A stretch of 64,000 nucleotides of DNA from Squalus acanthias (GCA_030390025.1 CM059452.1:8308001-8372000); one strand, 5' to 3'. Numbered from the stretch's first letter, positions 3,321 through 55,948 are shown. Numbers and translations: made by a program. The notes: generated by a model from the sequence alone, not told the origin.

Positions 3321-3324
3321 GGTA

Positions 3325-10900: not shown

Positions 10901-11067
10901 TGGAGTGTTCTGTTTTCTCGCCCTTTTTAGAAGGTCCCTGTGACTCTCACTGTGGAGACTGAATTATCGCTTGTTTATCGGCGTGAGAGCGCCCTCTGGT
11001 GAGCACTAACCGGAACTCTCAGTGTGGGGTTTTTGTACGGGATGCGCTATATCTCTGAAGCAATGTG

Positions 11068-11583
11068 GGGCTCATGGCACAGAAATACACGGCAGTGTCG
11101 GAGATCCGGACTTTGCCGATCGTTAGCTCGGTAATCTTGGTAGTTTTATTAAACCTAGAATTGAATCGGTCAGTAACGTCATGGTTCCGGTTCACATTCC
11201 CTCCGATAAGATGAAGTACGTACTGTGGTGGCTTCCCGGGGTGCTGACTGTACCAGTACACATAAGGGTTAGTATCGCTTGTTTTCAAGGTGCAGGTTAG
11301 TGTGACATTGCTTTCCTCTTCAACCGTCATTTCAAGGACCGTCTGTTCCACTGTGTCTTGGAGGCTACATTCTAAAATAAAATAACAGTAATAGTGATTA
11401 TCACCACCATCACCATCACCATCACCATCATCACCATTACCATCAATGTCATCTTAAGCAACATAATCATCATCATTTTAGCAACAATAACATCTGGGTT
11501 ACAGCAGTCAGGGGGAGAATGTGAAGGAAATACTTACTGAGAAGTGATATAATGATGAGGGGAGAAGTGATACGGGTCCACAT
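11068..11583 (-). CDS. TRAV: TCR alpha/delta V segment, family A (leader 11583-11538, V exon 11371-11068)
   Basis: VTLTC...WYSQHPG...DTAVYFCAMS; RSS CACATTG, 24 bp, ACAAAAACC (11067-11028); CTCF motif ~10988-11002. Confidence 0.9.
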
Positions 11584-12426
11584 GATCTTCCCTCCGTCTG
11601 TAAGTCTGCAGTCCGGGAAATCCACTTTCGGAGCAGAAATACAGATTCCCGCCCCCACTGCACTGCTGATCCAAGCAATGCCAGACAGGGAACAGCGGCA
11701 GCAATCTCTCCAATAACACAGGGCAGGCAAGGCGGGTCAGAGCGAGAGCAGCAAACGGAAGCTGTGGGCGGGGCTGCAGCGGGCAGTATCACCGCAAGAT
11801 TTGTCTCTATAATTTCCAGTTGATGACGGCGAGAAACACGTGACCACGGCGCCCTCTGCCGGTGATTCTGAGAATTTTACACCGTCGGGAAAATCGGTAG
11901 AGTAAAGTGTGAGTTTATCGGTGGGGCAGTTTCCAGAGGCCTGTTATTGGGAGACAATGTGTATTGCTTCAGACAATTCAGCTTTGTAAACAGGGGGAAG
12001 GGAAATGCGAGTGAATTTAAAGGAAATACATTTTTCTTTAATTCTGAATCTCTTTATGGCTTTTTCTTACCTTTTAACTTTATGTTTCTCACTCGTTATT
12101 TCTCACATTCTTTCATTTCTCTTTCCCTCCTTTCCTAACCTGCTGTCCTCTACACTCTCATTATTACACCGCTTTTTCTCTTTCTCTCATTCCCTCTTTG
12201 GTGTATTCTCTTTCTTTTCCTCTGTCTATGTTTCCAACTCTCTTCATTTCTCACTTTCTTTAAATCATTCTCTTCAATATATCATCATTGTTCTGTGCTC
12301 AGTCCCTCTGTCCTCCGATTATTATAACCGGGCCCCTCCCAATCCCGTTACTCCAAACACAGCAGAGCGGCGCTCCCCCTCGGGGCAGGTTTCTGTGCGG
12401 ACTCTCCGCCTGTTTGTTACACTGTG

Positions 12427-12760
12427 GGCTCACGGCGCAGAGATAGGTGGCGCTGTCTGTCACTCGCGCGTCTCTCACAGTCAGGACACTGAGTTTATTG
12501 CCTCCCCCGATTGAAGCAGTGATCCTCCCGTGTTGATCGGTCCCGCTTGTGGCCATCACCAGATGCTGGAGGGTCTGATCCGGGTTCTGTCTGTACCAGT
12601 GCAGGACGGTAAACGCAGCGGTAGCGGAGCAGTTGATGGACACGATTCCCTCTTCACTAACAACCACCCGCCGAGGGAACTGCTCCATCTCATCTTCACC
12701 GCTCACATCCGTACAGATCAGAGTGTAAATCAGCAGGGAAACTCTGTAAATCCGGAGCAT
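12427..12760 (-). CDS. TRAV: TCR alpha/delta V segment, family C, leader and V in one exon
   Basis: Continuous ORF MLRIYRVSLLIYTLICTDVSG-EDE...SINC...WYRQ...DSATYLCAVS; RSS CACAGTG, 23 bp, ACAGAAACC (12426-12388). Confidence 0.85.
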
Positions 12761-12934
12761 TATCCGATCAGATGAAGAGGAGGCTGAAAGAATTGCACAC
12801 GGAGGTCGGGTTAGAACCAGGACTCTGATATTATATCCAGGAGAATTAGGAAGGAGACAAACTTCCGCTGCATGTCCAACTCAGAGACTTCTTCCTGTCG
12901 AAATAACGAAACAATCTGCGTCTCGGGGTTTACC

Positions 12935-13190
12935 TAACCCGGGCCGCCCACACTCAGTGTTTCTCACTGACACCAGATCACACTGTCTCTGAGCTCACCC
13001 CGGGCCGCTCACACTCAGTGTTTCTCACTGACACCAGCTCACATTGTCTCTGAGCTCACCCCGGGCCGCTCACACTCAGTGTTTCTCACTGACACCAGCT
13101 CACACTGTCTCTGAGCTCACACCGGGCCGCCCACACTCAGTGTTTCTCACTGACACCAGCTCACACTGTCCTGAGCTCACATCGGGCAGC
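12935..13190 (-). repeat. 61-bp VNTR upstream of family-C V (~4 units)
   Basis: Same unit as 35559-36005 and 51490-51735. Confidence 0.9.
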
Positions 13191-14818: not shown

Positions 14819-14898
14819 CACACTGAGAAGGGTCTCGGGACCCCTCGTACAGTAACCGTGTTCTGTGAGATCAGCTCAATGAAGCTGCTTTAAACCCG

Positions 14899-14915
14899 GC
14901 CACCAGGTGGCGCTG
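14899..14915 (+). promoter_or_regulatory. CTCF-binding motif downstream of RSS
   Basis: GCCACCAGGTGGCGCTG matches the CTCF core consensus. Confidence 0.75.
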
Positions 14916-15502: not shown

Positions 15503-16005
15503 ATGTGGAACCCTCTCGCAACGCTCTTCGTCATTATATCACTTCTCAGTAAGTATTTCCTTCCCAGTGAAATCCATTCTCCACCTGACTGCTGTAACCC
15601 AGATGTGAATGTGGTAAAATGCTGTTGATGATGATGACTATTACTATTATTTTATGTTAGAATGGAGCCACCAAGACACAGTGGAACAGCCTGTCCCTGA
15701 AATGACGGTTGAAGAGGAAAGTAATGTCACACTAACCTGCAGCTTGAAAACAGGCTATGCTAACCCTTCTGTGTTCTGGTACAGTCACCACCCCGGGCAA
15801 CCTCCACTGTATGTGGTTTATCACTATGTCGGGATAGTGAACCCGGGCACCGGCTTCACTGACAGATTCTCTTCTACATTCAATCAAACAACCAAGATTA
15901 CCGAGCTAACGATCAGCAATGCCTTGATCTCAGACGACCGCCGTGTATTTCTGTGCCATGAGCCACACACTGCTGCAGAGATATAGTGGATCCCGTACAA
16001 AAACC
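15503..16005 (+). pseudogene. Family-A V pseudogene with a +1 frameshift in FR3
   Basis: Leader 15503-15548, exon from 15661; GACGACCGCC instead of GACACCGCC removes YFC from frame; RSS 15966-16005 with 24-bp spacer. Confidence 0.85.
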
Positions 16006-16204
16006 CACACTGAGAGTTACAGTTAGTGCTCGCCAGAGGGCGCTCTCACACCGATAAACAGAAGCGACAATTCACCCTCCACAATGAGAGAGGCAGAGAC
16101 GTTCTTAAAAGGTCGACAAAACACAATACGCAACAAGATTGCAGCCTCATTACAGCCTTGGTCCAAACATGAACAAAACAGCTGAATTCCAGAGGTGAGG
16201 TGAA

Positions 16205-17050: not shown

Positions 17051-17384
17051 GTTAGAGTGGTGAGGTGGTGGGGGTGTTGAAGGAGACGGATTGAGGCAGA
17101 CACAGAGATTAAACACCATCTCCACCCATTCCCAAACTTCCTTCCACACCCTTCAGAAGGGTCGTTATTACTTCCCGCGCTTAACCAGATGTGCTATTCC
17201 ACCACATGCCTGAACTCCAGAAGTTTAGATGAAAAGCAGCACAGTAACAGAAGGAAAATGCCGGAAGAATCTTGGGTCTGATCAGAAACATCTGGATATG
17301 TTCCCATGGCCGGGAGGCTCCGAAATAATCCGATGAGACAGCGAATAACGTCTGAGAGACAGGGAGGTTAAGTCAGTTATGGCC

Positions 17385-20190
17385 TGGTGGAATATAAACA
17401 GAGACATTATCCAGTGCAGTAATAATTGAGACAGGGCCTAGCTTCACATAAACAGAGACATGGCTTAGTGTAATATAAACTGAGACATGTCCTAGTGCAG
17501 TAATAACTGAGACAGGGTCTAGTGTAATATAAACAGAGCTGGGTCTAGTGTAAAATAAACAGAGACGTGGCCTAGTGTAATATAAACAGAGATGGGGCCG
17601 AGTGTAATATCAACAGAGACAGGGCCGAGTGTAATATAAACAGAGAAAGGGTCTAGTGTAATATAAAAAGAGAAATTGTCTAGTGCAGTAATAACAGAGA
17701 CACGGTCTAGTGTAATATAAACAGAGACAGGGTCGAGTGTAATATAAACAGAGACAGGGCCCAGTGTAATATAAACAGAGATAGAATCTAGTGCATTAAG
17801 AAAAGAAACATTGTCTACTGCAGTAATATCTGAGACAGGGTCTAGTGTAATATAAACAAAGACAGGGTCCAGTGTAATATAAACAGAGAAGCGGTCTAGT
17901 GCAGTAATAACTGAGACAGGGTCTAGTGTAATATTATCAGAGACAGGGTCTAGTGTAATATAAACAGAGACAGGGTCTAGTGTAATATAAAAATAGAAAT
18001 GGTCTAGTGCAGTAACAACAGAGACACGGTCTAGTGCAGTAATAATGGAGACAGGGCCTAGTGTACTTTAAACAGAGACGGGGCCTAGTATAATATAAAC
18101 AGAGACAGGGCCTAGTGTAATATAAACAGAGATAGAATCTGGTGCATTAATAACAGAAACATTGTCTAGTGCAGTAATAATTGAGACAGGGTCTAGTGTA
18201 ATATAAACAGAGAGAGGATCCAGTGTAATATAAACAGAGACAAGGTCTAGTGTAATATAAACAGAGACAGGGTCTAATTTAATATAAACAGAGAGAGGGT
18301 CTAGTGTAATATAAACAGAGACTGGGTCTAGTGTAATATAAACAGAGTCAGGGTCTAGTGTAATATAAACAGAGACAGGGCCTAGTGTAAAATAAACAGA
18401 GACAGGGTCTAGTGTAATATAAACAGAGACAGGGTCTAGTGTAATATAAACAGAGACAGGGTCTAGTATATTATAAACAGAGACAGGGTCTAGTGTAATA
18501 TAAACAGAGACAGGGCCTAGTGTAATATAAACAGAGCCAGGGTCTAATGTAATATAAACAGATACCGGGTCTAGTGTAATATAAACAGACACAGGGTCTA
18601 GTGTAATATAAAAGGAGACAGTGTCTAGTCTAATATAAACAGAGACAGGGCTTAGTGCAATATAAACAGAGACAGGGTCTCATGTAATGTAAACAGAGAC
18701 AGGGTCTAGTGTAACATAAACAGAGACAGGACCTAGTGTAATATAAACAGAGCCGGGGTCTGGTGTAATATAAACAGAGACATGGTCTCGAGTAATATAA
18801 ACAGAGACAGGGTCTAGTGCAGGAATAACAGAGTCAGGGCCTAGTGTTATTTAAAAGGAGACAGTGTCTAGTGCAGTTATAACTGAGACAGGTCCGAGTG
18901 TAGTATAAGTGGTCATGCCCTGGTGCATTAATAATTGAGACAGGGCCTATTGTAACACAAACCGAGGCAGGGCCTAGTGCAATAATAACTGAAATCGGGG
19001 CCTAGTGTAATATAAACAGAGACAGGGCCTAGTTCAGTAATAACTGGCTCCGTGCTTAGCATAATATAAAAATAGACAGGGTCTAGTGCAGTAATAACTG
19101 AGCCATTGTCTAGTGTAATACAAATACAGATACGGTCTAGTGGAGTAACAAATGTGACAGGATGTAATCTATTATAAATAGAGACAGTGACTACTGCAGT
19201 AACAACTGAGATGGGCCCTATTGTAATATAAACAGAGACATGGTCTAGTGCAGTAATAACTAAGACAGCGCCTACTGTTATATATAAAAGACAGGGCCTA
19301 GTGTAATATAAACAGAGACAGGGTTTAGTGTAATATAAACAGAGACAGAGTCTAGCATTTTATCAAAAGGACAGGGTCTTGTGTAGTAATGACAGTGACA
19401 GGACCTAGTGTAATATAAACCGAGACACGGTCTAGTGTAATATAAACAGAGACAGGGCTTAGTGTACGATAAACAGAGACAGGGTCTGATGTAATATAAA
19501 CAGAGACAGCATCTAGTGTAATATAAATAGCGACAGGACCTAGTGTAATATAAACAGAGACGGGGTCTGATGTAATATAAACAGAGACATGGTCTACTTT
19601 AATATAAACAGAGACAGGGTCAAGTGTAATATAAACAGAGACATGGTCTAGTGTAATATAAACAGAGACATGGTCTCGTGTAATATAAAGAGAGACAGGG
19701 TCTAGTGTAATATTAACAGAGATAGCGTCCTAGTGTAATATAAACGGAAACAGGTTCTAGTGTAATATAAACAGAGACAGGGCCTAGTGTAATATAAACA
19801 GAGACAGCGCCTAGTGTAATATAAACAGAGACAGGGCCTAGTGTAATATAAACAGAGACAGGGTCTAGTGTAATATAAACCGTGACAGGGTCTAGTGTAA
19901 TATAAACAGAGACAGGGTCTAGTGTAATTTAAATAGAGACAGAGCCTAGTGTAATATAAACAGAGACAGCGTCTAGTGTAATCTAAACAGAGACAGGTCC
20001 TAGTGTTATATGAACAGAGACAGGGTCTAGTGTAAACTAAACAGAGACAGGTCCTAGTGTTATATGAACAGAGACAGGGTCTAATGTAATAAAGACAGAG
20101 TCAGGTCCTCGTGTAATATAAACAGAGACAGAGTCTAATGTAATATAAACAGAAACATGTCCAAGTGCAGTAATAACTGATGCTGGTCCT
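17385..20190. repeat. 2.8-kb 26-bp minisatellite, inverted relative to 1-720
   Basis: (TGTAATATAAACAGAGACAGGGTCTAG)n directly visible. Confidence 0.95.
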
Positions 20191-20353
20191 AGTTTATGAT
20201 CGACACAACTGTCTCTTTGTTTATGACACACTGAGGAAACATTTTGAATTGAGTTATTGTTATCCTCACTCATCGGTCCTCGCAGTGAGTTTAGACCATG
20301 AAATACAATGAAACCGAGAGTTCGCTGTCAGTATCCCGTGCCGTAACACCTGC

Positions 20354-20545
20354 AGTTTATGTGTTGGCTCTTGCCCTAAATACTCCGCTGTGTGCGGTGT
20401 TAAAACACAGAAGTATTTCCTGGAACCTCCAGCTGTCAACTTTGACACCGTTTCCAGACGGTCTGCAAGTGTTGGGCAAAGAATTGGTGCTGTAGCGCCA
20501 TCCAGTGGCGTGAGCGGGTAACTGAAATCCTGTCTGTGAAACATT
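20354..20545 (-). pseudogene. Decayed family-E V relic with RSS
   Basis: VSKLTAGGSRKYFCVLTP resembles the 47.4 and 62.8 kb segments; RSS CACAGCG, 23 bp, ACATAAACT (20392-20354). Confidence 0.7.
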
Positions 20546-23680: not shown

Positions 23681-25222
23681 AAAAGGATATTGGTTCTGAA
23701 ATTCCCGCGATATCGATTGTCTGAAAATCCATCTGTATCACTAATCAATTCGATAACTATATTTTTAATTTGTCAGCGACTGGCAAAGGCGGCCGCCTCT
23801 TATAACTTTGTTCTTCAGCATCCAATTATCAGACGGCTGACGTGTTTCTCACCGACACAGCCGATATTCGGGCTGCTTGGACTTTGTAAACGTCAAAAGC
23901 GATTGATGTCTGTTCACTCTGGTGGGCGAAATCGTGTCCTTGCAATGACTCCGAAGCCAATCTCTCACCCTCTGGGACTCTGTGTTCAAACGCGGTCGAG
24001 ACAATGGGGATGGAGCCTCCTTTTCTGGTGGGATGACTGGGGTAGGCAATTTGCCCGACAGATTCACTGATAATGTACCCGGGGCTACCGAATACAAGGG
24101 AGAACTGAACATTAGCGGTCCCGTTGAATGGACTCACCCACCGAGAGAGAGAAAAATACAGACCCTTATGGTCGATGAAACTTAATCTAGAAAAGTGTGA
24201 AGTATTGTACATGAGAAGGGACAATGAAGAACATACATACATCATGAGTGGTGTGGAAATAGCTAAGGGTGAATCTGAAAGTGCTGGGAGTGTAAAGGGC
24301 CCACATGTGCAGGGAATGCGGTGAAGAACACGTGGAATACTCGCCAGGATCTGGGGTCACTTTACAAGGAATGTTCACATTGATAGGGTCAAACGGATTT
24401 AATATCTGTTGACGCCGTTTGTTTAATTGCAACATTCAGCTGTACAACACACAGACAATACATACATATGTCAGGAAATTACTTCAATAATAATGTCCCC
24501 ATTGGAAGTCATATAATTCCGCTTCTCTATAAGAACTGTGTTGCCCCCAGGCTCGCGAAAGGATTTGCAGTTATTATATTAGCTACAAGCATCTTCATCA
24601 CTGGGCTGGGATTAAACTATGGGGTTAGAAACAGATGTTGGATTATATAACAAAAATCCAACCGATTCCGAATTGTAATTATTAATGAGAAATGTATTTA
24701 ATTCAAAACTGTCAACTGGAGGTTGCGAAGTAATGCGTGAAATTATTACACTGTTATTGACGATATAATATCAATGAACAGAAATCTAAGAGTTGAAAAG
24801 GAATTTCTTGTTAATTTATATGAAAACATATGTCAGGCAGCATTGGCTGATGCAACGTGACCGGCGGTGGGAAGCAGCGGTCTGTCAGCGCCACCTGGTG
24901 ATCGGGTTTAAAGTAACTTCTTTGGGCTGATCTCACAGAACACTGTTCATTTTTCGAGTTCTCTCTGTTCCCATTTCCAGGTCGGATTCAGGATGACCTG
25001 CCGATGCTCTGGCGCATGCGCTCTCCTCACCCCAGTCTCCATCAATGCTGAGCCCCGAGCTCCCCTCACAGGTTCACTTTTTGTGTTCCAGAGACCGTGT
25101 GTGACGGGCACAGTGCCGCGGTGTCAGGCTGAGATTAATACACAACAGCGCTGCCTTCTCCAGGAGCCTCTCTCGGCCTGGATCTGCCGACAGTCACTTT
25201 ACACAAATCGATAGGATCCGAC

Positions 25223-27068: not shown

Positions 27069-27796
27069 GAGTGACTCAATCCCTCGCAGTGAATTGGAAT
27101 GGAAGGGGTCAGAGATTGAAGCGAGCGGTAACCCGGGCTGTTCAGATCATTGTTCCACCTGCACACTGCAGGGGGGCTGACTTCGTTATGACGTCACCCA
27201 GATTACCGATTGGCTTTGGCGTTTGCATCGCGTGACTTTCTAAGCCCCCCTGCTTGAGTTTGGTGCCCTCTGCTGGCGGATTCTGTTATATCGATTTAGT
27301 ATGAGGTAATTGAGGGGAATTCGGGTTTGTTGATCATATATAAAAACACGTGTGTCCGATATTGTGGCTCAAAAATCTATATTATACCTGATTAAACACT
27401 GTCATTATTTATTATGCTTCTTTCATTTCCCTCTCACTCTATTTGGTCCCAGTCACTTTCTCAGTGAGCAGTAGCAGGTTTACCACAGGCTTCTCGAGAC
27501 CCAACCATCGCCCTTTCCGTTCCATCAGCTCCGAGTGCAGCTGAGCGGCGCCGCGCACTTTCTGCGGTTACACAGAGCCCTGAATTCGCTCAATATTTAG
27601 TCTGAGGCAGCCCCACCCACAGCTTCCGTGTGCTGCTCCCGCTCTGACCCGCCTTGCCTGCCCTGTGTTATTGGAGAGATTGCTGCCTCTGTTCCATGTT
27701 TGGCATTGGTTGGATCAGCAGTGCAGTTGGTGGGGTCTTTATTTCTGCTCCGACATAAGATTTTCCGGACTGCAGAGTTACAGACTCAGGGAAATC

Positions 27797-28280
27797 ATGC
27801 AGGATCGTCTCGCACCGCTCCTCATCATTATATCACTTCTCAGTAAGTATTTCCTTCCCAGTAAAATTCATTCTCCCCCTGACTGCTGTAACCCCGATGA
27901 TATTATTGGTGAAATGATGATGATTATGTTGATTCAGGTGATGATGATGATGACTATTACTTTTATTTTATGTTAGAATGGAGTCACCAAGCCACAGTGG
28001 AACAGCCGGTCCCTGAAATGACGTTTGAAGAGGAAAGTAATGTCACACTAACCTGCACCTTGAAATCAAGCGGCAGTAGAACTTATGTGTTCTGGTACAG
28101 TCAGCACCCCGGGCAGACCCCACAGTACGTGGTTCGTATTATCGGCGAGAATGTAAAAAGGAACCCAGACATCACTGATCGATTCTCTTCTACGTTTAAT
28201 ACCATTACCAAGATTACTGAGCTAACAGTCAGCAATGCCCTGATCTCCGACACCGCCGTGTATTTCTGTGCCATGGACCC
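27797..28280 (+). CDS. TRAV: TCR alpha/delta V segment, family A (leader 27797-27842, V exon 27977-28280)
   Basis: Intact frame; RSS CACACTG, 24 bp, ACAAAAACC (28281-28320); CTCF motif 28345-28358. Confidence 0.9.
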
Positions 28281-29924
28281 CACACTGCTGCAGAGATATC
28301 GCGGATCCCGTACAAAAACCCACACTGAGAGTTTCAGTTAGTGCTCACCAGAGGGCGCTCTCACACCGATAAACAGCAGCGATAATTCAGCCTCCACAGT
28401 GAGAGTCACAGGAACCTTCTTAAAAGGGCAAGAAGCACAACACGCAGGTAAACTCCACTTGCTGAATTGTATTAGTTGGTGATTTCAACTCGCATTGATA
28501 ACAAAAATTAACTTCACAAATCCATCTGTGGTGCATGAACTCCCCTTTTATCTTCGATGTCCTTTCCGTGCCTACTTGTCCCTTCTCATCCCTTGTCTCC
28601 ACTCTTTACCCAAAATCATGTACATTTTCTTCTTCCAGTCTTGAGTTTAACGATGTAAAACGTTTGCTGCTGTTCGACGTATTAATTCGGAACCGCTCCA
28701 ACCCAGTTAAGCATAAAGAGGAACTGGAGACAGCTCATTGACTAAACACAGAATATCCGCCAGAGGGCGCCGTGTTCACGTGTTTCTCTCTGCTCAAATG
28801 TGCAAAACCATCAACATTTGAAACCTGTTTATGTCTGTGTTTGTGTTCGTGGGGTTCAGTAAAGTTTTCCCTCACTGTTGTTTTTACAGCTATTCATCGT
28901 CACAATCTCTCCCCATCACACTTATGAATTATTTTCTTATCCTGCAAATCTTAAAGCAACTGCGAGTGAAGTTTTTGGCAGTTTTGTAAAGCTATCGTTT
29001 GAAAAATACCTGGAAAGAAGGACATACCCATGGAGACAGGACTGTAACCGGGTGAAGAGCTTCTCCCGTGTCACTAACCACCGTTTCCCTCCCCGTGATA
29101 TCAATTTCAGCACAGTGTTAGTTTCAGGCAGACATTAATCTAACGGGTTCAGTGATATTCGGGGAAGGGGCGCATACTCCTCTCCGAGAAATTGCCATCA
29201 CAATCTGATGATGACAGTAAGATGTTGTCTCAAAGTGACAAAGATAGGATTTGAAAGTAGATGACAATGTTCAGTTAATTTTACTCACTGTCACTAATCA
29301 GACTGAGGTGGTTGACGGGGTTCGGGTTTGATTAACCTTCAGCTGGGGACACAAGGGGATGATTTCCTTTGGTCTCTCAGTTTTAGTGACATCGCAAATA
29401 GAGTGGCAAATCTTTGGTCGCTGTTTTAGAATATTTCGTGCTGCTCCTGTGGGACTCCCAATCGAAAGTGCTTTCTTTTAGAAAGCGATCAATATTTAAT
29501 TAGAAACAGAGACCAGATGAAATCTACCCCACAGAGCGGGTACCTCGGTGTAAACACGAATGTTACAGGCGATGCTCTTGATGAGCCTTCTTACATCGAC
29601 AGAAAATAAACCAGCACTCAGCAAACTGACTGATTTGCGCCCATTAAATAAATCCCCAAAACTCAGCAAAGCTGAAGCTTTACTCACCCCGAAGACTGCG
29701 CGGAGTGACGGACTCCACCCTCAGATATATTAAGCTGTGGATGAAAGGGCTTCAACTGACACTTGACTCTCATTCGAATCCTATTTCAATATATGGCGGG
29801 ATTGGATATTACATCATTTGAGGGGAACAATGAGACAAGGAAGTGACCTTGAACCAATAGGAGCCACTGACGAGGTCTATTCCGGTCCTGGATTGGGCTT
29901 TTAACGGGACCGACAGGTTCGGAC

Positions 29925-30828: not shown

Positions 30829-32717
30829 TGTCGCTGTCCGCTCTGTAAAAGGGGGGTTGGATATTTGAAGACACCCGTTCTAATCCCCGCCCTCAATAAT
30901 CTGCTGTCGTGTCTCAGGATGCTCTGACCTCACTTCCTTGTGTCCCCAGTGGTGCTGTGAGACCGGTAGGTGGTGAGCTGGCTGCCAGTGAATGGAAACA
31001 CCCCGAGCTGGGCAACAGTCAGTGTGCTTATAGGGGAATGGTTCCGCTTTTACAGACCGGGGTGGGAATGAAACCCTTGTCTGCTTATTGTGACCGGAAA
31101 TCTCAGGATTGTTAATGAATTATGGTTTATTCCGGGGTCAATTCTTTCTCCAGAATTCCGTTAGTTTGACCGTCGGGACACCGGTAACCGTGACTCTAGT
31201 GAGCTTTCCCTCACGGGTCCATTTACTAGTGAACTATCAATGACCCGGTATTTTATCGGAGTGATTTATAGATCCGTGATATTAGAACGATGATGTCAGC
31301 TGTTACTGAACAAACTATTGAAGGGACATGAAGAATAAGCTCTCCCTGTAATTTAAGCAGTGTTTCAAGCACCGTCCCCTTCTGTGGTTTGCATTCAAAA
31401 TGTTTTCAGTTATATCTGGTGAATTGGGGCCATCTTTGTGCCTGTAATGATTAATTTAAGGATCCCTAATTTTCACTTTTTCGATTTGCAATGAGAGAGA
31501 ATGGAGGGAGCGGCGCTTTTCAGCAACTTACCGCTCATCTGCTTAAAGTGCCCGGGAGCAGAGCGGCGGGACCGGGGTCAAGCCCCCAGGGTGAGGTGTC
31601 GGGCGGGATCTCGTTAACAAGAGCTCAACACCAGCAGGACATGAAAAACTGTCCTTTCAACTTTCACTCTTATTAGAAAAGGATGTGGCGCCGGAAAAGA
31701 AACAAACAACAGGCGGTTCCGGTTTGTCTTTCGCTCCTTTAACATCGATCTCCACTATCGGTACAGTTAATGGCTTCAGAAATCAGATCTCAGGATGTGT
31801 CTTTCACTCACATTTTATTATTCCTTTCCCCATCTTCCACATACTACCACTTACTTGTCCTGCCCATTGGTTAGTTTCAGAATTAAATCCTTCGATATGA
31901 TGGATGAACCTTTGTGATGATTATTGCCCGACGTACCGAGCCAGTCCATTGTGGCAAGTGGATTTCAAATGTTAATCTTCAATTCATTCCAACATTTGCA
32001 CAACAATTCGAGAAACAACATTTAACTCAAAGCCCCGGGGTCTGAGCCACAAAAGGAATATTGTGACCTGACGCCCTCTGGTGGATATTCGGAGAACTGT
32101 TCAGATGCCGGTGCACAGGGTTTGAGAAATTCCAGCCGAGAAATTTGTCCCGGGCAGTGGCTCAAGACGGGCGGTATCGGATCGGCCGCCGGTTATACGC
32201 AGCGCCTGATATTCAGTTCCATGGACCGAGACGAATCTCTAGACCACTGTGTTTATTGACTGCCCTGTCTGCAGTTCCTGTTTTGGGAAGCTGGGTTGGA
32301 GCGGTTCTGAATGAATATGCCGAGCAGCAGCAAAGGTTTTACATCGTTAAACTAAAGACTGGAAGAAGGAAATTCATATGATTATGAGTAAAGAGTGGAG
32401 ACAGGGGACGAGAAGGGACAGGCAGGCACGGAAAGGGCATCGAAAGACAAAAGGCGCCGCAGATGCCTTTGCGCAATGTATTTTCATTATAACTGCGAGT
32501 TAAAATCACCAACTAATATAATTCCACCGGTGAGCCTCACCGGTTATGGTTGAGAGTTTTGTTTAATTGGCCTTTTAAGAAGGTCCCTGTGTCTCTCACT
32601 GTGGAGGCTGAATTGTTGATTCTGTTTATCGGGGTGAGAGCGCCCTCTGGTGAGCACTATCTGGAACTCTCAGTGTGGGTTTTTGTGCGGGAGCCGCTAT
32701 ATCTCTGCAGCAGTGTG

Positions 32718-35540: not shown

Positions 35541-35558
35541 GATATATTTGTGCGAAAC

Positions 35559-36506: not shown

Positions 36507-37341
36507 CACAGTGTAACAAACAGGCGGAGAGTCCGCACAGAAACCTGCCCCGAGGGGGAGCGCCGCTCTGCTGTGTTTGGAGTAACGGGATTGGGAGGGG
36601 CCCGGTTATAATAATCGGAGGTCAGAGGGACTGAGCACAGAACAATGATGATATATTGAAGAGAGCGATTTAAAGAAAGTGAGAAATGAAGAGAGTTGGA
36701 AACATAGACAGAGGAAAAGAAAGAGAAAACACCAAAGAGAGAATGAGAGAAAGAAAGAGAAAAAGCGGTGTAATAATGAGAGTGTAGCTGACAGCACATT
36801 AGGAAAGGAGGGAAAGAGAAATAAAAGAAAGTGAGTAATAACGAGTGAGAAACACAAAGCTAAAAGGTAAGAGAAAGCCATAAAGAAAATGGTTCGGAAA
36901 TAATGTAAAATCCTTTAAATTCACTCACATTTCCCTTCGCCCTGTTTGCACAGTTGAATTGTCTGAAACGCGACTCCCAATTTATCAAGCCGCTGGCAAC
37001 TGTCCCGTAGATAAACTCAAACTTTGCTCTGCCCATGATGCTGACAGTGTACAGTGCCGGGTCACCGCCAGAGGGCGCCGTGGTCACATGTTTCTGGCCG
37101 TAATCAACTGGAAATTATAGAGACAAATCTTGCGGTGACACTGCCCGCGGCAGCCCGCCCACAGCTTCCGTTTGCTGCTCTCGCTCTGACCCGCCTTGCC
37201 TGCCCTGTGTTATTGGAGGGATTGCTGCCTCTGTTCCTTGTTTAGCATTGGTTGGTTCAGCAGTGCAATGGGGCGGGGATCTGTATTTCTGCTCCGACAG
37301 AGGATTTCCCGGACTGCAGAGTTACAGACTCAGGGAGCATC

Positions 37342-37841: not shown

Positions 37842-39111
37842 CACACTGCTGCAGAGATATAGCGGATCCCGTACAAAAACCCCACACTGAGAGTTCCAGT
37901 TAGTGCTCACCAGAGGGCGCTCTCACACCGATAACCAGAAGCGACAATTCAGCCTCCACAGTGAGAGAGAGACAGAGTCCTGCGAGGAACTTGTGTCCGT
38001 CTCTTTACCAATAACCTGCTGCTGCTCTGTTGCACAAACACTTTACAACAAACTCAAATGGGTATATTGAATCGATGTTAAACAGCCTGCTTGTGGCGAG
38101 GTTACCGGGACCAGCTTCAACCGGTCATTATTTTCCAATATTACAAACCAAACTTTACATCCTCATTCTGTCTTCCTTTTATTCAGTTTTCTATATAATT
38201 ATCTCTCATCTTTACATCGAGATTGAGGGAGACACACACACAGAGGCGGACCGAGCAATTTCCGCGGACCAAAGGTCCACATTATCTCTCTATATATTGG
38301 TGCAACTCTTGTGTAGGATGCTGCCTTCCCTATAAAAAGGAATTTGAAAATGGAATTTGATATATACATGAAAAGGAAACATTTTCAGGGCTATGGGGAA
38401 AGAGCAGGGCAGTGGCACTAACAGCACAGGCACGATGGGGCAAAGGTCACCTTCCGTGCTGTAAGACTCTATGTTTCTATGAAATGAGCTCAGAAGGAGA
38501 GTTAAAGAGACACTAGGCGGTAACAGTGATCAAGGAGAGCAGTCAGCATGTAGTTTCCGGCTCCGTCCAAGTGGTGGCGCCGTGGAGCGAATTTCCTTAG
38601 TCTCTCGGTCGTTATTTGCTACATCAAACATCATTTATTGTCCCCGGGTAACGCTAAGGGCAGCTCAACACTGTCTATGTAAAATGCCACTGCTACATGC
38701 AATGACCTAAATGACTAAGGAAGGGGGATAGTTTCTCTGCTCACTGAGTGCAGGGAATGGTACATTGTTCCACGAAGATTCCCTCTGTTCTCCCTCTAAA
38801 TGAACCTTAAATACGTTTTTTGTGAAATTCAGTTATTCAAAAAGGAAGAGTTTATGATTTCCCTGAAAATACCGATCAGAGGAATCTCCATTGAAATATT
38901 TCGGATGTTGCTGCACACACAGTGACCAGAGCAATTCTCCCCGCTCCCTGATGGTGTGAAATTATCCCAAACGGATGTGACATTGTTGCAGGGTCACTTC
39001 CTTTTCTATGCCTGTCACAGGGTTTAATAGTTCAGCTTGGTCCTGTACTGGTGGCAGTTATTGCGACAGCAGAGAAGGGGTCGATGCTCATATTGTGACC
39101 CGCGGACAGCG

Positions 39112-44821: not shown

Positions 44822-46611
44822 GGCCGCTGCCGAGCCCAAACCTGTCGGTCTCTTTAAGAGCCCCATCCCGGACCGGAATATACCTCGTCAAGGGCTCTTA
44901 TTGGTCCAACGCCACTTCCTGCTCCCATTGTTCCCCTCCAATGACAACATCTCCTATACACCCGCCATATATTTAAATGAGATTCAAGTGAGGCTCATGG
45001 CTCAGTTGAAGCCCTTTGAACCACAGCATAAAGTATCTGAAGGTGCAGCCAATCACTCAGTAAGCGCTGCCTGAGGTTCGGGGATTTATTTAATGGGCCC
45101 GAATTGGTCACACTGAGTGTTTGTTTATTTTATGTCGGTGTGTGACGGCTCACCGAGAGCATTAACTTCTTTGTCCTGTATCATTCGTGGTTACACTGAA
45201 CTATCCGCTGTGTGTGGTAGATTTCCTCTGCTCCCTATTTCTAACGAAATAGTGAATGCATTCTAAAATAATAAACGTGCGATTTCGTTAAAACAGCTTG
45301 TGGATGAGATTTACAGAGAGAGACCAGAGGAAATCTTCCCACTATGGGTCCCCAGCAGATTAATCAAACCCGACTCCCCATCAACCACTTCAGTCTGATT
45401 AGTGGCAGTGATTGAAATAAACAACATCTTAATCTACTTTCAAACCAATATATTGTCACTTCGAGATAATATCTTACCGCCATCATCCGACTTTGTTGGT
45501 AATTGCTTGGAGGGGAATATGAGCCCCTTCCCCAAATATCTGCTGAACCCGTTAGATTAATGTCTGCCTGAAACTAACAGGAGGCGTCATTCCACTATCC
45601 TGAAATTAATCACATGGGAAGGGAAATGGTGGTTATTGACACGGGAGAAACTCCTCACCCGGGTTACAGTCCCATCTCTCTGAGTGTGTCTTTCATTCCA
45701 GATTTTAATATATAAGGGTTTTTTTTTAAACGGCAGCTACCAACGAAGTCACTCGCAGTCGCTTTAAGATATGCAGTATAAGGAAATAATTCATAAGCGT
45801 GGTAGAGATTGTGACGATGAATAGCTAACAAAGTAAAAGAGATGGGGGGAAAGCTTTGCTGAATCCCACGAACAAAAACTCAGATACAAGTAGGCTTTGG
45901 AATTGTGATGCGTTTACACAAATCAGGAAGAACAATGGTTCGAGTCCCGAGGGAGCAGCGAGAATCATGGGACCACGGCGCCCTCTGGCGGATACGATGA
46001 GACCTTTTACATTGATCGGATATTGGGTGAAAACAGACAATAAGTGTGTGTATGAGGCAGTGTCCTTTTATGGGGAGGTGTGTTGCGGGGATTCTGATGG
46101 CGAATGTCGAGCCGTGTACATCATCACTTACAGGGACGAAAACATTAATAAGAGGAAGTGGAGCTTGGAAACTGACATTTTCCGCTGGGAGATTTGACCC
46201 TTTCTGATCCGCACAATAAACAACAACAACCCGCAATCCGCATTCACAACAACTGACTTTCATTTCCTTTCAGTTCAACTGGTGCTGGATGCCTGTGATC
46301 TTTGTGCGTGCACGGGCTCCAGTCAGTATGATTTCCCTCCCGCTTTTCCCGGTGACCAGTGATTCCTTTCTCTGTGTCTGCACTGGGGAAACCCTGATAC
46401 AAGCTGCACCACCCCCCTGCTGAGGGAGAACAAGTGAGCGAGGCCCAGAGAGGCCGCTGTCCATCTGTCTGTCAGTCATCAGCCTGGTTACCTCAATAAA
46501 GGCATTTCACTCATCCAGCTGCATTTGTATATAGATATTATACATTTATTATTAATAAAGGTACACATAAATTATAATGAACAGAACAAGGTCTAATCTA
46601 CAAGTACTAAG

Positions 46612-50375: not shown

Positions 50376-51489
50376 CGCGGGAAGTGATGTCACACGTAGG
50401 ATCCACCTGTGAGGAATTCTCGCGCTGTCCTCACTTTCTCTCACAATGTTCCCTTTCTTCTTTCTTTGAAATAATCAATTCCAAAAAACCGAGCGATTGT
50501 GATTGCTCGCGGATGTGCGAGAGTTTTAATCAGCACCGTATCCCAGTGCCTGACTGTAATGACATCTAGAGAAGTATCACACAGTTGATGTATTAAAACC
50601 ATATCCCGCAATATTACTTTAAATTGAACTGTTTGCAGTAGAAAAGGGAAGCACGGGTTCAAAGTATAAAATGTAATTATAGCACAATATCTTCTTCACA
50701 CGCAGAAATTTGTGAATGTATGGAATAAGTTTCCGAATACAGTGGTGGAGGAACATATCCTGGAATTTTTTGAGGAAAAGTTTGAGGCAACATTCGGGCC
50801 GAGTGATAGTCTCTCTCTGGATGGATGGGACAATACGGGCCGAATGGCTTCCCTCATTCAGAATGATCTTGTGAACTGGAACAGGGCAGGACTTGTATTT
50901 TGTAGTTACAGGCAGTCGCCACCAGAGGGCAGTGCGAGGATGTGTTCACTGTGTTGGTTTCAGTATCGAGGCGATTTACAGCCTGAGAACATTGTTCAGT
51001 AACTTTATTGAAGGGATTAAAGAAGCAGATTCGGAAATAGGGGCATTATTTTGAAATTACTATCAGTGTTTATGTGGCTTATTATCCATTTTCATTATGA
51101 TTTATCAATGTTATTATTATTATTAATATGTTGTAAATATTAGTATAAAATATTCCCACTCCATCCTTCTGGGAAAGAACACGGGTTAAAATTATAAAGG
51201 GACATTTTATAACTGGTATCAGGAAATTCCTCTTCACATACACAGTGATCAATGTGTGGCATAAATTTTCATTTAGAATGTGGGAGGAAAATATACTGGA
51301 ATCGTTGGATGCTACAATGGACGTCGAGAGCTGGGATCGCTCTGAGTGACGCAGTCATCCCTAGCGGGAGCGAATAACCGTTCTCACTTGTAACTATCTT
51401 GTGCAGTGCAAATGATCGGGAATTCGAGTCAAAATTGCACCTCGAAATTACCAGTACAGGCCACCTGATAATAGGGTGAAACGGTGAGA

Positions 51490-51735
51490 AACACTGAGTT
51501 GGCGCGGCCCGGTGCGAGCTCAGAGACATTGTGAGCTGGTGTCAGTGAGAAACACTGAGTTTGCGCGGCCCGGTGTGAGCTCAGAGACAGTGTGAGCTGG
51601 TGTCAGTGAGAAACACTGAGTTTGCGCGGCCCGGTGGGAGCTCAGAGACAGTGTGAGCTGGTGTCAGTGAGAAACACTGAGTGTGGGCGGCCCGGTGTGA
51701 GCTCAGAGACAGTGTGAGCTGGTGTCAGTGAGTCA
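51490..51735 (+). repeat. 61-bp VNTR upstream of family-C V (~4 units)
   Basis: Same unit as 35559-36005. Confidence 0.9.
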
Positions 51736-51913
51736 CACTAAGTAAACCCCAAGATGCAGCTTGTTTTGTTTACTCGACAGGAAGAAGCCTCTGAGTTGGA
51801 CATGAATCGGAGTTTGGCTCCTTGTTAATTATCCTGAATATATTATCCGTGTCCTGGTTCCAACCCGACCTCTGTGTACATTTCTTTCAGCCTCCTTTTC
51901 ATCTGATCGGAAA

Positions 51914-52247
51914 ATGCTCCGGATTTACAGAGTTTCTCTGCTGATTTACACTCTGCTCTGCACGCATGTGAGCGGTGAAGATGAGGTGAAGCAATTTCCG
52001 AGGCGGGTGGTTGTTAGTGAAGAGGGAAGCGTGTCCATCAACTGCTCCGCTACCGCTGCGTTTACCGTCCTGCGCTGGTACAGACAGCACCCGGATCAGA
52101 CACCCCAGCACCTGGTGATGGCCACAAGCGGGGCCGATCAACACGGGAGGATCACTGCTTCAATCGGGGGAGGCAATAAACTCAGTGCCCTGACTGTGCG
52201 AGACGCGCGAGTGACAGACAGCGCCACCTATCTCTGCGCCGTGAGCC
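51914..52247 (+). CDS. TRAV: TCR alpha/delta V segment, family C, single exon
   Basis: Open ORF; RSS CACAGTG, 23 bp, ACAGAAACC (52248-52286). Confidence 0.85.
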
Positions 52248-53093
52248 CACAGTGTAACAAACAGGCGGAGAGTCCGCACAGAAACCTGCCCCGAGGGGGA
52301 GCGCCGCTCTGCTGTTTTTGGAGTAACGGGATTGGGAGGGGCCCGGTTATAATAATCGGAGGGCAGAGGGAATGAGCACAGAACAATGATGATATATTGA
52401 AGAGAGAGAGCTAAAGTAAGTGAGAAATGAAGAGAGTTGGAAACATAACAGAGGGAAAGAAAGAGAAAACACCAAAGAAAGAATCAGAGAGCGAAAGAGA
52501 AAGAGCGGTGTAATAATGAGAGTGTAGAGGACAGCAAATTAGTAAAGGCGGGAAAGTGAAATGAAAGAAAGTGAGAAATAACGAGTGAGAAACACAAAGC
52601 TAAAAGGTAAGAGAAAGCAAGAAACAGATTCAGAAATAAATTAAAATGTATTTTCCTTTAAATTAATTCACATTTCCCTTCGCCCTATTTACAAAGCTGA
52701 ATTGTCTGAAACAATACACATTGTCTCCCAATAACAGGTCTCTGGAAACTGCCCCATCGATAAACTCACACTTCACTCTGCCGATTTTCCCGACAGTGTA
52801 AAATTCTCAGAGTCATCGGCAGAGGGCGCCGTGGTCACATGTTTCTTACCGTCAACAACTGGAAATTATTGAGACAAATCTTGTGGTGACACCGCCCGCG
52901 GCAGCCCCGCCCACAGCTTCCGTTTGCTGCTCTCGCTCTGACCCGCCTTGCCTGCCCGGTGTTATTGAAGAGATTGCTGTCGCTGTTCCCTGTTTGGCAT
53001 TGCTTGGATCAGCAGTGCAGTGGGGAGCGGATCTGTATTTCTGCTCCGACAGACGATTTCCCGGACTGCAGAGTTACAGACTCAGGCAGCATC

Positions 53094-53592
53094 ATGTGGA
53101 ACCGTCTCGCACCGCTCCTTATCATTATATCACTTCTCAGTAAGTATTTCCTCCCCAGTATAGCTCCATTCTTCCCCGACTGCTGTAACCCAGGTGCTAT
53201 TGTTGGTGAAATGATGATGATTACGTTGCTTGAGATGACAGTGTTGGTGATCGTGATGATGATGACTATTACTGCTATTTTATTTTAGAATGGAGCCACC
53301 AAGACACAGTGGAACAGCCTGTCCCTGAAATGACGGTTGAAGAGGAAAGCAATGTCACACTAACCTGCACCTTGAAAACAAGCCATCCTAGCCCTACAGT
53401 GTTCTGGTACAGTCAGCGCCCCGGGCAGCCCCCACAGTACGTGCTTCGTCTTATCGGAGAGAATGTAAACCGGAACACCGACTTCACTGACAGATTCAAT
53501 TGTACGTTTAATAAAACCAGCAAGATTACCGAGCTAACGATCGGCAAAGCCCTGATCTCCGACACCGCCGTATATTTCTGTGCCATGAGCCC
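53094..53592 (+). CDS. TRAV: TCR alpha/delta V segment, family A (leader 53094-53139, V exon 53289-53592)
   Basis: Intact frame with an extra Cys in RFNCTF; RSS 53593-53632 with 24-bp spacer; CTCF motif ~53658-53671. Confidence 0.9.
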
Positions 53593-53764
53593 CACACTGC
53601 TGCAGAGATATAGCGGATCCCGTACAAAAACCCCACACTGAGAGTTCCAGTTAGTGATCACCAGAGGGCGCTCTCACACCGATAAACAGAATCGATAATT
53701 CAGCCTCCACAGTGAGAGTCACAGGGACCTTCTGAAAAGGGCGAAAAAACAGAACACTCCACAA

Positions 53765-54265
53765 GTCACCGCTTTTTCTTCTGTCTTAACTCTTGAAGAC
53801 AGCGTCTGACTGACAGAATCACAATAATTCAGATCTGAAAAAACATGTTCAAAGAGGAAAAGGACAGACCAGCGAGTGTTTACAATTCAGATTCAAAACA
53901 TGTTGGAAATTGGAGAAAAGTTGAAATGTGTGTTGATCCACCATCATCATCACCATTTCACCAACAATAACACCTGGGTTGCAGCAGTCACGGGGAGAAT
54001 GTATGTTTACTGGGGAGGAAATACTTACTGAGAAGTGATATAATGATGAGGAGCGGTGCGAGACGGATCCACATGATTCACCCAGAGACTGTAACTCTGC
54101 AGTCCGGGAAATCCTCTGTCGGAGCAGAAATACAGATCCCCGCCCACTGCACTGCTGATTGAACCAATGCCAAACAGGGAACAGCGGCAGCAATCCCTCC
54201 AATAACACAGGGCAGGCAAGGCGGGTCAGAGCGAGAGCAGCAAACAGAAGCTGTGGGCGGGGCTG
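53765..54265 (-). pseudogene. Family-A promoter/leader with truncated V stub (inverted paralog of 10398-10900)
   Basis: Same structure as the 10.4 kb copy. Confidence 0.75.
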
Positions 54266-55948
54266 ATGAAGAGGGAGTGAGAAGAAGGAAATAGTCGCCT
54301 GGTGCTCACTTTCTCTCGCAATGAGCCCTTTCTCTGAAGCGGAATGATGAAGGGGATGGTCACAGGAGCTGTTTTAAGTAACAACGTGTCCCAGTGCCCG
54401 ACTGCAATGACCCCAAGAGGAGTATCAGCATTAAAACCGAACCCGCAATATTATTTAAACTGAGCTGTGGAATTAGAAGCTGGGGACACGGGGTCAATGT
54501 ATAAAAGCTCATTTTAGTGCTGGCACCAGGAAATTCTTCACACACACAGAGTGATTAATGTGTGGAATATACGTCTGGATAGAGTGGCCGAGGGAATTAC
54601 CCTGGAATCGTTTAAGGAAAAGTTTGAGGTTGCAGTGAGGGGCGGGAGTTAGGATCTCTCTGGATGGATGAGACAAGACAAGCCGAATGGCCTCCTTCAT
54701 TCTCAGTGATCTGGTGAACTGCAACACGGCGGGATTTGTACTTGTAGTTACAGGTACTCGCCACCAGAGGGCAGTGGGCGGATGTGTTCACTGTTGGTTT
54801 CAGTGTGAGGGCGTGTTACAGACAACACCGTTCAGTTCCTTTATTTAATAAAGGGATTCTGAAATAAAGGCATTAATTTCAAATGGAAGCGTTGTTTTAT
54901 TTTTTAATGTTAGTGTGAATTATTAGAGTATTATTAATGAGATGTTGTAAATATTTTAATGACCAGCTCTCCTTAGTATCACTGAGCCTATCCGCTGCTC
55001 CCATCCTTCCATTCTGCTCAAACATGTCAGTCATTCCCCATTTCATTCATATAAGACGTGGCGTTTGTACAATTTACCGTATCGTTGTGTTCAAGTCCCT
55101 CGGGGCCCGCTGGCCGTCTATATTCCCCTTTATATCAGCAGTGGGTAGATCTGATGATTAGTGAGCAGCTCTTCTAATCGGAGCCTCCGGCACTGATACC
55201 AGAACAACATTAACTATTTCCCTTTACTGCCCCCACCGCACAGATTGCACCTGTCTAGTGAATTTAGATCCCATTGCATCTGAAAACAGAATGTAGGCAA
55301 GTTGTTGCGCAAACAATATGAGATTAATGTTTTATCCGTTCAGGGACCTGCACTCATCAGTTAAAGACAGCAGCAAGTGGATCGCACCGCGGGGATGGGG
55401 CTGTGCTGATTGTGTCCAGGAAGAGAAGCGAGAAAGGACAAATATACAACCCGTGACTCAGGGATGAGCGGGTGCAGCTTGTCACATGATATTCAGAAAT
55501 TGTCTGATTGGTTTGGAAATACTTTGGCACATTGTTGAGAGACGGAATGAATCCAATTTTAGAATAGTTTGCACCAAGTCTGTTTCTCATTCATCTCAAA
55601 CAATTCACAACTGAATATATATCAATAACATCCACAAGATATCAATCATTGTGTGCACGTCTGTGTTTAATCTGGTATGTGTGTCTGTGTGTGTTTCAGT
55701 GTGTGTCTGTCTATGTGCAAGTGTCTGTGGTCATGTGCTTGTTTCCAATGCTCTGTGTGAGGCTTGTACCTGACACAGGAGTGCGCTCTCTGATCACTTG
55801 TTAAAGAGCTTGCATCTCAAGCAAAGTACAACTGAATATAAGTCATTAACCTCCAAAGATATCAAACATTCTGTGTATTTTTGTTAATGTTGGTGTGTGT
55901 GTAATGTAATTCATATTCTTAAGATTGCAACTATTAATTGGACACAAC

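Follow-up and report, generated by a model that had tools for sequence, protein, structure and literature searches.

The 64,000-nucleotide stretch of Squalus acanthias DNA analyzed here (the window) lies within a shark TCR alpha/delta V array several megabases long. Its V exons have 23-type RSSs, are TRAV/TRDV-like, and show 63–72% identity to shark proteins, one of which is named TCR alpha-like. V families of the window recur on C911, where D-delta, J-delta, and an extended J-alpha array are linked to them; C911 holds family A, family C, and further families, together with one D, 13 J at 558–576 kb, and 107 J at 681–779 kb. Protein similarity and D/J linkage both agreed with the first-pass annotation, which had called a shark TCR locus. 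We sought a link between C911 and C29 via DAD1; DAD1 was on C8, and C911 terminated in satellite. Because C911 is unplaced relative to C29, J-ward and J-away directions are not assignable to the window V genes. A D-beta-like pattern match on C3 proved not to be a TCR locus (150 kb there was reused as background), and J-like matches on C3751 were a tandem repeat.

Each of the six family-A V segments in the window has a CTCF motif immediately beyond the nonamer and on the same strand as the V (14.8–20.1 bits; Table 1), as scored with a 19-bp matrix (JASPAR MA0139.1). The motif starts 22–23 bp from the last nonamer base, and its core, CACCAG, lies ~25 bp after the nonamer, the spacing previously described. 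The copy at 16027 reads CGCCAG (one mismatch), and its V is frameshifted. The family-A RSS is itself non-consensus, with a 24-bp spacer and heptamer CACACTG (one mismatch); RSSs of other families vary. Exact pattern matches to the family-A cassette numbered 78, of which 72 were confined to C29 6.49–10.32 Mb (34 + and 38 −) and the remainder lay on C449, C911, and C3620; on this ground a genome-wide repeat was rejected as the source of the motif.

Table 1. V genes, RSSs, and CTCF motif matches in the window.
Feature	Position	Strand	Details
Intergenic CTCF motif	4283..4301	-	24.9 bits; 1.15 kb behind minus-strand V
Intergenic CTCF motif	9881..9899	-	23.4 bits; paralogue of 50916 and 54758
Family-A RSS-adjacent CTCF motif	10987..11005	-	17.9 bits
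Family-A TCR alpha/delta V gene	11028..11583	-	Leader ATG 11583, V exon, RSS 11067-11028, 24-bp spacer
Promoter-side CTCF motif of family-A gene	11847..11865	-	~280 bp upstream of ATG; also ~520 bp behind family-C RSS
Weak CTCF-like match abutting family-C nonamer	12370..12388	-	11.5 bits; RSS heptamer at 12426
Family-B V RSS	14819..14857	+	23-bp spacer
Family-B RSS-adjacent CTCF motif	14897..14915	+	26.3 bits, top score in window
Family-A V gene, frameshifted near 3' end	15503..16005	+	RSS 15966-16005, 24-bp spacer
Family-A RSS-adjacent CTCF motif, one mismatch	16027..16045	+	14.8 bits
Intergenic CTCF motif, absent from first-pass annotation	20493..20511	-	16.8 bits
Paralogue of family-B site without adjacent good RSS	24886..24904	-	20.5 bits
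CTCF motif opposite to adjacent family-A gene	27261..27279	-	23.4 bits; 536 bp upstream of its ATG
Family-A V gene, intact	27797..28320	+	Leader ATG 27797, RSS 28281-28320, 24-bp spacer
Family-A RSS-adjacent CTCF motif	28342..28360	+	Collinear with horn-shark P0002; also spanned in contigs from four other organisms
Second downstream CTCF motif	28754..28772	+	434 bp behind family-A nonamer
Second downstream CTCF motif	32069..32087	-	591 bp behind family-A nonamer
Family-A RSS-adjacent CTCF motif	32638..32656	-	RSS 32717-32678, leader ATG about 33185
Weak family-C match	36545..36563	+	RSS 36507-36545
Promoter-side CTCF motif	37062..37080	+	Family-A gene with ATG at 37342
Family-A RSS-adjacent CTCF motif	37904..37922	+	RSS 37842-37881
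Intergenic CTCF motif related to promoter-side family	45976..45994	-	–
Intergenic CTCF motif	50916..50934	+	23.4 bits
Weak family-C match	52286..52304	+	RSS 52248-52286
Promoter-side CTCF motif	52813..52831	+	15.4 bits; family-A gene with ATG at 53094
Family-A RSS-adjacent CTCF motif	53655..53673	+	20.1 bits; RSS 53593-53632
Intergenic CTCF motif	54758..54776	+	23.4 bits; 1.13 kb behind family-A nonamer

Every motif listed by the first-pass annotation was found at its place and strand. The family-B motif lies 40 bp past the nonamer on the V strand (39–40 bp across family B), behind an RSS as described, although the heptamer is at 14819 rather than 14.5 kb. A weaker match does abut family-C nonamers, but it reaches 11.5 bits (p about 2e-5) in only 8/12 copies and is lost in 4/12, and it was not counted as a CTCF site. 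The claim that such motifs accompany V RSSs in general was too broad: a strong RSS-adjacent site occurred in 7/23 window V segments having a good RSS and in 34/152 V segments overall (about a fifth), and was absent from 118/152. All 34 trace to just two ancestral cassettes, those of the unrelated V families A and B, and to a chimera; the RSS-plus-site cassette has been transferred as a whole to a further V family. No RSS-adjacent site was found in any of 31 V segments of the locus judged IgH-like by appearance rather than by a tree (0/31), or in light-chain V segments (0/4); at the gene level, these absences lend no support to the suggestion that the control is ancient. A promoter-side class was also present, 12/25 family-A genes having a forward site 242–282 bp upstream of the leader ATG. 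Thus, the contrast drawn earlier with mouse Tcra is only partial. A tRNA/SINE origin of the motif at 45976 was rejected, as ARAGORN detected no tRNA gene.

Motif density and constraint

Matches to CACCAGAGGGCGC at ≤2 mismatches numbered 19 in the window versus 0.83 in 100 shuffles (maximum 4), and matrix matches of ≥15 bits numbered 20 versus 0.5 in 40 shuffles. Strong motifs (≥16.9 bits, p < 1e-6) were 27-fold denser in the V array (106 in 664 kb) than in non-V samples (2 in 340 kb); this background included the 150 kb of C3, and one of 20 C29 samples was removed from it for containing V genes. The scan against shuffled and non-locus background that had been suggested therefore showed enrichment on both counts. 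A minisatellite at 34.9–36.0 kb, with many 9.7- to 12.6-bit matches and no core constraint (10.5/11.0), was left out.

The 128 sites sorted into 22 flank families, which are not all independent: families 1, 2, 6, 12, and perhaps 0 have flanking words in common. At homologous places located by flanks alone, the motif was kept in 32/34, 21/21, 13/13, 12/12, 9/10, 9/9, and 8/10 cases. Parsimony changes per site (core/flank) in seven families were 0.38/2.08, 0.31/1.50, 0.23/0.99, 0.23/0.86, 0.38/0.62, 0.08/0.66, and 0.38/1.50. Cores were thus 1.6- to 8-fold less variable than flanks, with the steepest drop directly after the motif; family 4 showed the least constraint (0.38 vs 0.62), with 20% of other windows equally conserved. 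We relied on these per-family figures, because a pooled core-versus-flank test (p = 2e-12) counts the minisatellite and assumes independent columns. An upstream CTCF module (≥5 of 8 against the consensus, at 5–6 bp spacing) was matched in 7/21 site families versus 6.7% at other offsets; family A scored only 4 of 8. RSS, linker, and site are homogeneous as a block, with 3.5–5% variability in spacer and linker, so gene conversion may contribute. The first-pass annotation had asked whether duplication of one ancestral site could account for the enrichment; given the stronger constraint on cores than on flanks, duplication by itself is not a sufficient explanation of the motifs.

Comparison with other species pointed the same way. 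A horn-shark read-through protein, P0002, is collinear through the RSS and family-A site with no indels and with a P>A change at the codon over a C/G-degenerate motif position, implying that a candidate motif sits at the same place in horn shark; a search for further read-through proteins of this kind returned P0002 alone. Contigs from four other organisms also bridge V, RSS, and site. We judge it very probable that the motifs are real CTCF sites under selection.

Site orientation and V(D)J joining

Within 100 bp of an RSS we found 34 forward and 0 reverse sites, 17 on + genes and 17 on − genes, which supported the proposal that motifs are oriented with V in both polarities. Strong sites in three C29 blocks were likewise bidirectional (59 + and 47 −), and near-V site families were forward in 14/16 (p = 0.004). 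The two strands did not differ in intactness, either for all V (55/79 on + vs 52/73 on −, p = 0.86) or for V with an RSS-adjacent site (13/17 on each). Differences from the majority sequence were 1.0% vs 0.0% in the core and 15.8% vs 14.7% in the downstream flank (+ vs −). Inversions can be young (one inverted duplicate of 9.3 kb stands at 96.6%), so this symmetry may merely reflect too little time to decay. V segments with and without a strong RSS-adjacent site were intact at similar rates (26/34 vs 81/118, p = 0.52), showing that the site is not required.

There was no single locus-wide direction facing D-J; site orientation was polar only close to J. On C911 at 70–600 kb, 75/83 V and 24/32 strong sites face the J genes, and the most J-proximal V array (370–520 kb) had no strong site. 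One strong reverse motif (C911:664074) lies 17 kb upstream of about 107 J-alpha segments, within a CTCF-poor 340 kb.

We suggest that the RSS-adjacent candidate CTCF sites likely help their V segments join during receptor assembly. The selectively maintained motifs would probably bind CTCF in thymocytes; at or near V segments, bound CTCF would then stall cohesin loops, and V segments of either orientation would come close enough to the J region for RAG to capture them by short-range diffusion, as in Igk or Tcrb. The reverse site at C911:664074 may be a TEA- or Cer-like loop anchor, and the family-A site may offset its non-consensus RSS. The array could have begun one-way and been scrambled by inverted duplications carrying V and site together. 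Skate TADs reportedly display a CTCF orientation code (PMC10115646), and inversional Vk joins are described as needing CTCF barriers (PMC12820099). Whether cohesin stalling with orientation-independent V capture would be the main job of the sites strikes us as evenly balanced. Two observations sit awkwardly with this proposal: the site is kept on 6/6 broken family-A genes, unlike the pattern reported in mouse (PMC6746451), and diffusional joining has been tied to strong RSSs (PMC11153149), whereas the family-A RSS is non-consensus. A bolder version, which we hold only tentatively, is a portable RSS-plus-CBE cassette that would work in either orientation, rescue the 24-bp-spacer RSS, be transferable to other V families through germline crossover, and loop to the TEA-like anchor. 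If true, CTCF-guided V selection would date to the jawed-vertebrate root and be older than one-way RAG scanning.

A purely local role, in which bound CTCF keeps the RSS and V promoter open (by nucleosome phasing, or by protection from methylation or neighboring repeats) and boosts cleavage of a non-consensus RSS with no long-range partner, seems unlikely. It would fit the fixed spacing, the transfer of the cassette as a unit, the tracking of gene rather than locus orientation, and the CTCF/RAD21 reported at the RSS of mouse state-A VH genes (PMC4914699). However, many strong constrained sites lie 0.4–1.4 kb from any RSS or promoter, and the lone reverse site upstream of the J-alpha array suggests loops. 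Local opening and cohesin stalling are compatible with each other.

We consider it similarly improbable that RAG scans linearly from a J-alpha center, with J-facing RSS-adjacent sites stalling extrusion and inverted V-site units riding as passengers until flipped back. Site distance and co-orientation do match VH sites (RSS-to-CBE about 18 bp in mouse, 19 or 48 bp in human; PMC6746451), the J-proximal region is polar, non-consensus RSSs such as that of family A have been proposed for scanning loci (PMC11153149), and mouse Tcra/d is reported to join by deletion only (PMC10772921). Igh-type scanning nonetheless fits poorly because V genes and their sites are evenly divided between the two orientations and show the same decay in each. 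In mouse, scanning is reported to use deletional RSSs only, Igk joining by diffusion (PMC11153149). Under linear scanning, half of the V segments on C29 could not be used, yet the two strands do not differ in intactness or constraint; on this point we depart from the first-pass annotation. Teleost TRAV are also reported to join by inversion, salmon using both blocks (PMC8559430), and the V array closest to J lacks a strong site.

Functionless hitchhiking, in which a few chance CTCF-like words were multiplied by V duplication and homogenized by gene conversion, is very improbable: it accommodates the two ancestors of the 34 sites, the relatedness of some flank families, the co-orientation that follows from linkage, and the sites on broken genes, but not the constrained cores, the upstream modules, or the retention of the site in horn shark and in four further organisms.

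Comparison with known systems

At mouse and human loci, CTCF is known to control V(D)J recombination; RSS-associated CBEs of IGHV segments were reportedly treated by Jain et al. in 2018. A search of titles and abstract openings in non-subscription journals found no literature on CTCF at antigen-receptor loci of sharks or other non-mammals. A cross-species survey of RSS-associated CBEs extends to rabbit and chimpanzee at most (PMC6746451). A constrained CBE layout in shark TCR alpha/delta would broaden CTCF control to include the oldest lineage that has RAG-based receptors. With nearly identical V-site units present in either orientation, the locus offers a natural test of scanning versus diffusion.

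The Igh-like placement proposed earlier was borne out. As reported for mouse and human IGHV clans II/III (PMC6746451; PMC4914699), the motifs lie in V sense at a fixed short distance behind a 23-RSS, in some families only, within a CTCF-dense array. Unlike those clans (PMC6746451), the shark sites are on TCR alpha/delta V, have polarity about 50:50 versus >98% one way, are array-wide rather than J-proximal, are kept on broken genes, and are absent from the IgH-like V of the locus. RSS-side placement is more likely to have arisen independently, by convergence with mammalian Igh, than to have been inherited.

In the shark locus, features that mice have at different loci occur together: RSS sites like those of Igh, promoter and pre-J sites like those of Tcra, and two-way V genes like those of Igk. 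Mouse Tcra/d, as reported (PMC5859386), shares promoter-side forward V sites, a CTCF-rich array, and a V-facing site upstream of J-alpha (a TEA-like position); its sites, which are upstream or intergenic, point toward J-C in 129/144 cases, whereas the shark adds an RSS-side class and a bidirectional distal array. Mouse Igk, with its Cer/Sis elements and diffusion-based joining, resembles the shark in its megabase array, deletional and inversional V, and CBEs in both directions (PMC11153149, PMC12820099), but Igk CBEs are reportedly mostly intergenic and do not track V orientation (PMC5859386), whereas shark sites track V at RSSs and promoters and the family-A RSS is non-consensus. Mouse Trbv1 offers a parallel among TCR V genes: downstream of it lies a CBE reported to anchor loops, promote long-range joining, and still permit joining when the RSS is inverted (PMC10772921). 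Trbv1, however, is a single distal gene in a one-way locus, whereas on C29 of the shark a single cassette recurs at least 72 times, facing either way.

Locus identity and excess of CTCF motifs

The window, G000:C29:8308001-8372000, contains 23 V segments, distributed over both strands, whose 23-type RSS could be recognised. A family-A V segment shared 63–72% identity with proteins of horn shark and catshark, among them one named TCR alpha-like. The window's V families were found across contig C29 (at least 6.46 to 10.32 Mb) and were shared with contig C911, which also has one D segment, 13 J segments at 558–576 kb and 107 J segments at 681–779 kb. From the V similarity, and from the linkage of these V families to D and J segments on C911, we concluded that the window's V array is part of the shark TCR alpha/delta locus. 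An attempt to position C911 relative to C29 yielded no placement. The table includes DAD1, the gene that flanks TRA/D in mammals, and the repeats and RSS-like sequences encountered.

All of the motifs named in the first-pass annotation were located in the window. Scored with a CTCF matrix, the six family-A sites reached 14.8–20.1 bits and started 22–23 bp past the nonamer end, the family-B site reached 26.3 bits at 40 bp past its nonamer, and the family-C match reached 11.5 bits. The family-A core, with two mismatches or fewer, had 19 matches in the window versus 0.83 in shuffles. The proposed comparison with non-locus background likewise gave an excess: matches at p<1e-6 numbered 106 in 664 kb of V array, compared with 2 among non-V samples totalling 340 kb (C29, C3; one sample was excluded as V-bearing) and with 3 when the V-array sequence was reversed. 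RSS-side CTCF motifs are a real feature of the shark TCR alpha/delta array. Our literature searches turned up no publication dealing with CTCF sites at the antigen-receptor loci of sharks, and the nurse-shark TCR alpha paper gives only 17 germline V sequences and does not use the term RSS (PMC5931798).

Positions of features in the window and on other contigs of the assembly
Feature	Position	Remarks
Family-A RSS heptamers	window 11067, 15966, 28281, 32717, 37842, 53593	
Chimeric V genes	G000:C29:6476732, 6629391, 8267427, 8420864, 10188163, 10288159	exon from the V family represented at window 5490
Inverted duplicate, 9.3 kb	window 22269-31519; G000:C29:8384084-8393273	96.6% identity; several V genes aboard
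Inverted duplicate, 4.3 kb	window 8965-13190; 51504-55716	89.9% identity; inside window
Minisatellite	window 34860-36005	52-54-bp unit with CTCF-like word (9.7-12.6 bits), no constraint; source of false positives in motif scans
Satellite blocks	window 1-3330; 17375-20200	long, 27-bp period; break up V array
RSS-like sequence	window 30252-30364; 44074-44178	weak, opposite strand; overlaps flank of family-E RSS at 30364
IgH-like V array	G000:C911:377000-520000 (L091-L100, L068-L072)	29 segments in tandem, ~4-kb period, all +; directly upstream of D-delta
J segments	C911 562794; 571578	23-bp spacer fits better than 12
Reverse CTCF motif	C911:664074 (L027)	23.1 bits; GC-rich patch; 17 kb before first J-alpha
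J-alpha-type segments	G000:C911:681000-779000	107, many in tandemly repeated units (3 to 4 types)
Tandem repeat	G000:C3751:467600-473300 (L145)	44-bp unit like a 12-bp-spacer RSS, >80 copies
DAD1	G000:C8:78893176-78895029	neither on C29 nor C911

V segments that carry an RSS-side site

The survey covered three C29 blocks (664 of ~3,900 kb), in which 152 V segments had a good RSS; a site was counted as RSS-side if it scored at least 14.5 bits and lay no more than 100 bp behind the nonamer. Such a site was found in 34/152 segments, and its sense was that of the V in 34/34. Carriers were family A (24/25), family B (5/5) and a chimeric group (5/6); in these blocks, none of the remaining 22 V families on C29 had one. 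Because the site was confined to families A and B and to A-tailed chimeras, the RSS-side cassettes derive from two ancestors. Thus, the annotation's description of motifs beside V RSSs, oriented with each V gene, held for orientation but not for generality. The chimeric genes combine the exon of another family with the last FR3 codons, RSS and site of family A, and their junction, near the FR3 end, is apparently present in four other organisms. In 12/25 family-A genes, a separate site family lay on the promoter side, 242–282 bp upstream of the leader ATG; the annotated motifs at 11848, 37063 and 52813 belong to this promoter-side group. V segments without a site were intact at a rate similar to site-bearing ones.

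No site was found behind the RSS of 31 V segments that are IgH-like by appearance (29 on C911) or of 4 light-chain V segments on C75. At gene level these counts give no support to "ancient" in the annotation's "ancient or convergent"; RSS-side placement is likely convergent with mammalian Igh. Across 150 kb, the C911 IgH-like array was free of strong CTCF motifs.

Family A is the largest of the V families. Its RSS spacer was 24 bp long in 24/25 sampled copies, with horn shark implying likewise, and a second heptamer-like word, CACACTG, stood directly after the nonamer. Off-length spacers reduce joining in reporter studies, as reviewed (PMC7753069), so the CTCF motif may offset a weaker family-A RSS.

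Constraint and orientation

Homologous places were located via their flanks alone, so that decayed copies were recoverable. In the seven largest site families the motif was retained at 32/34, 21/21, 13/13, 12/12, 9/10, 9/9 and 8/10 places, and per-site parsimony changes, 13-bp core versus flanks, were, respectively, 0.38/2.08, 0.31/1.50, 0.23/0.99, 0.23/0.86, 0.38/0.62, 0.08/0.66 and 0.38/1.50. No 13-bp window was as conserved as the core in five families; 5% and 20% were in the other two. The minisatellite bearing CTCF-like words had no such core-versus-flank dip. An upstream CTCF module matched at the expected spacing in 7/21 site families versus 6.7% elsewhere. The RSS spacer and linker were homogeneous too (3.5–5% variable), so gene conversion may contribute to cassette homogeneity. 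Duplication alone, which the first pass named among its refuting conditions, does not explain the constrained cores.

In horn shark, the read-through protein P0002 continues past the RSS and aligned without gaps to window 28252–28410; going by codons, its residues would imply an RSS spacer of 24 bp, as here, and the same motif except for a single change, at the C/G-degenerate position. Contigs of four other organisms span V, RSS and site, and 0 of the 40 listed differences (48 more are unlisted) fell inside 28342–28360. All four contig sets had loose ends at 28244, similar to the chimera junction.

Sites were bidirectional, as first described: on C29, counts were near even for strong sites in the three blocks (59 +/47 −) and for the family-A pattern (34 +/38 −). 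Intact V genes numbered 55/79 on the + strand and 52/73 on the − strand, and core constancy was equal on both. Strand symmetry within a family results from inverted duplication, part of which is young (9.3 kb at 96.6%). Fourteen site families near V genes, some of them related, were mostly forward and two reverse. On C911 at 70–600 kb, 75/83 V segments and 24/32 strong sites faced J; the sole strong site at 520–864 kb, 664074, faced back toward the V and J-ward sites. We infer that the ancestral array was one-way, with its order retained near J and scrambled distally.

Candidate roles and known systems

The reading that fits the shark layout best is one of candidate CTCF anchors: cohesin would be stalled by them at V genes, and V genes of either orientation could then be captured for joining; judged from sequence, we give this about an even chance. 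Mouse Igk V genes of both orientations are joined by diffusion once loops bring them to a CTCF platform (PMC11153149), inversional Vk joins need CTCF barriers (PMC12820099), and the Trbv1 downstream CBE anchors loops, an inverted RSS there joining nonetheless (PMC10772921). Salmon uses TRAV from both blocks (PMC8559430), and skate TAD borders show a CTCF orientation code (PMC10115646). The off-length spacer and putatively weaker RSS of family A would be in tension with joining by diffusion.

Igh-type scanning seems unlikely. VH RSS sites lie ~18 bp (mouse) or 19 or 48 bp (human) past the RSS, >98% in a single orientation (PMC6746451; PMC4914699), and linear RAG scanning in mouse is restricted to deletional RSSs (PMC11153149). 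A purely local role of the sites in opening is also unlikely. Neutrality is very improbable, given that cores fell below flanks in parsimony changes in all seven families.

Compared with these alternatives, we prefer anchors that would allow capture in either orientation. In mouse Igk, CTCF-site orientation does not follow V orientation (PMC5859386). Mouse Tcra sites are chiefly upstream of V promoters, 129/144 face J-C, and the one at TEA points toward the V genes (PMC5859386). The shark site at C911:664074 occupies the position corresponding to that of mouse TEA.
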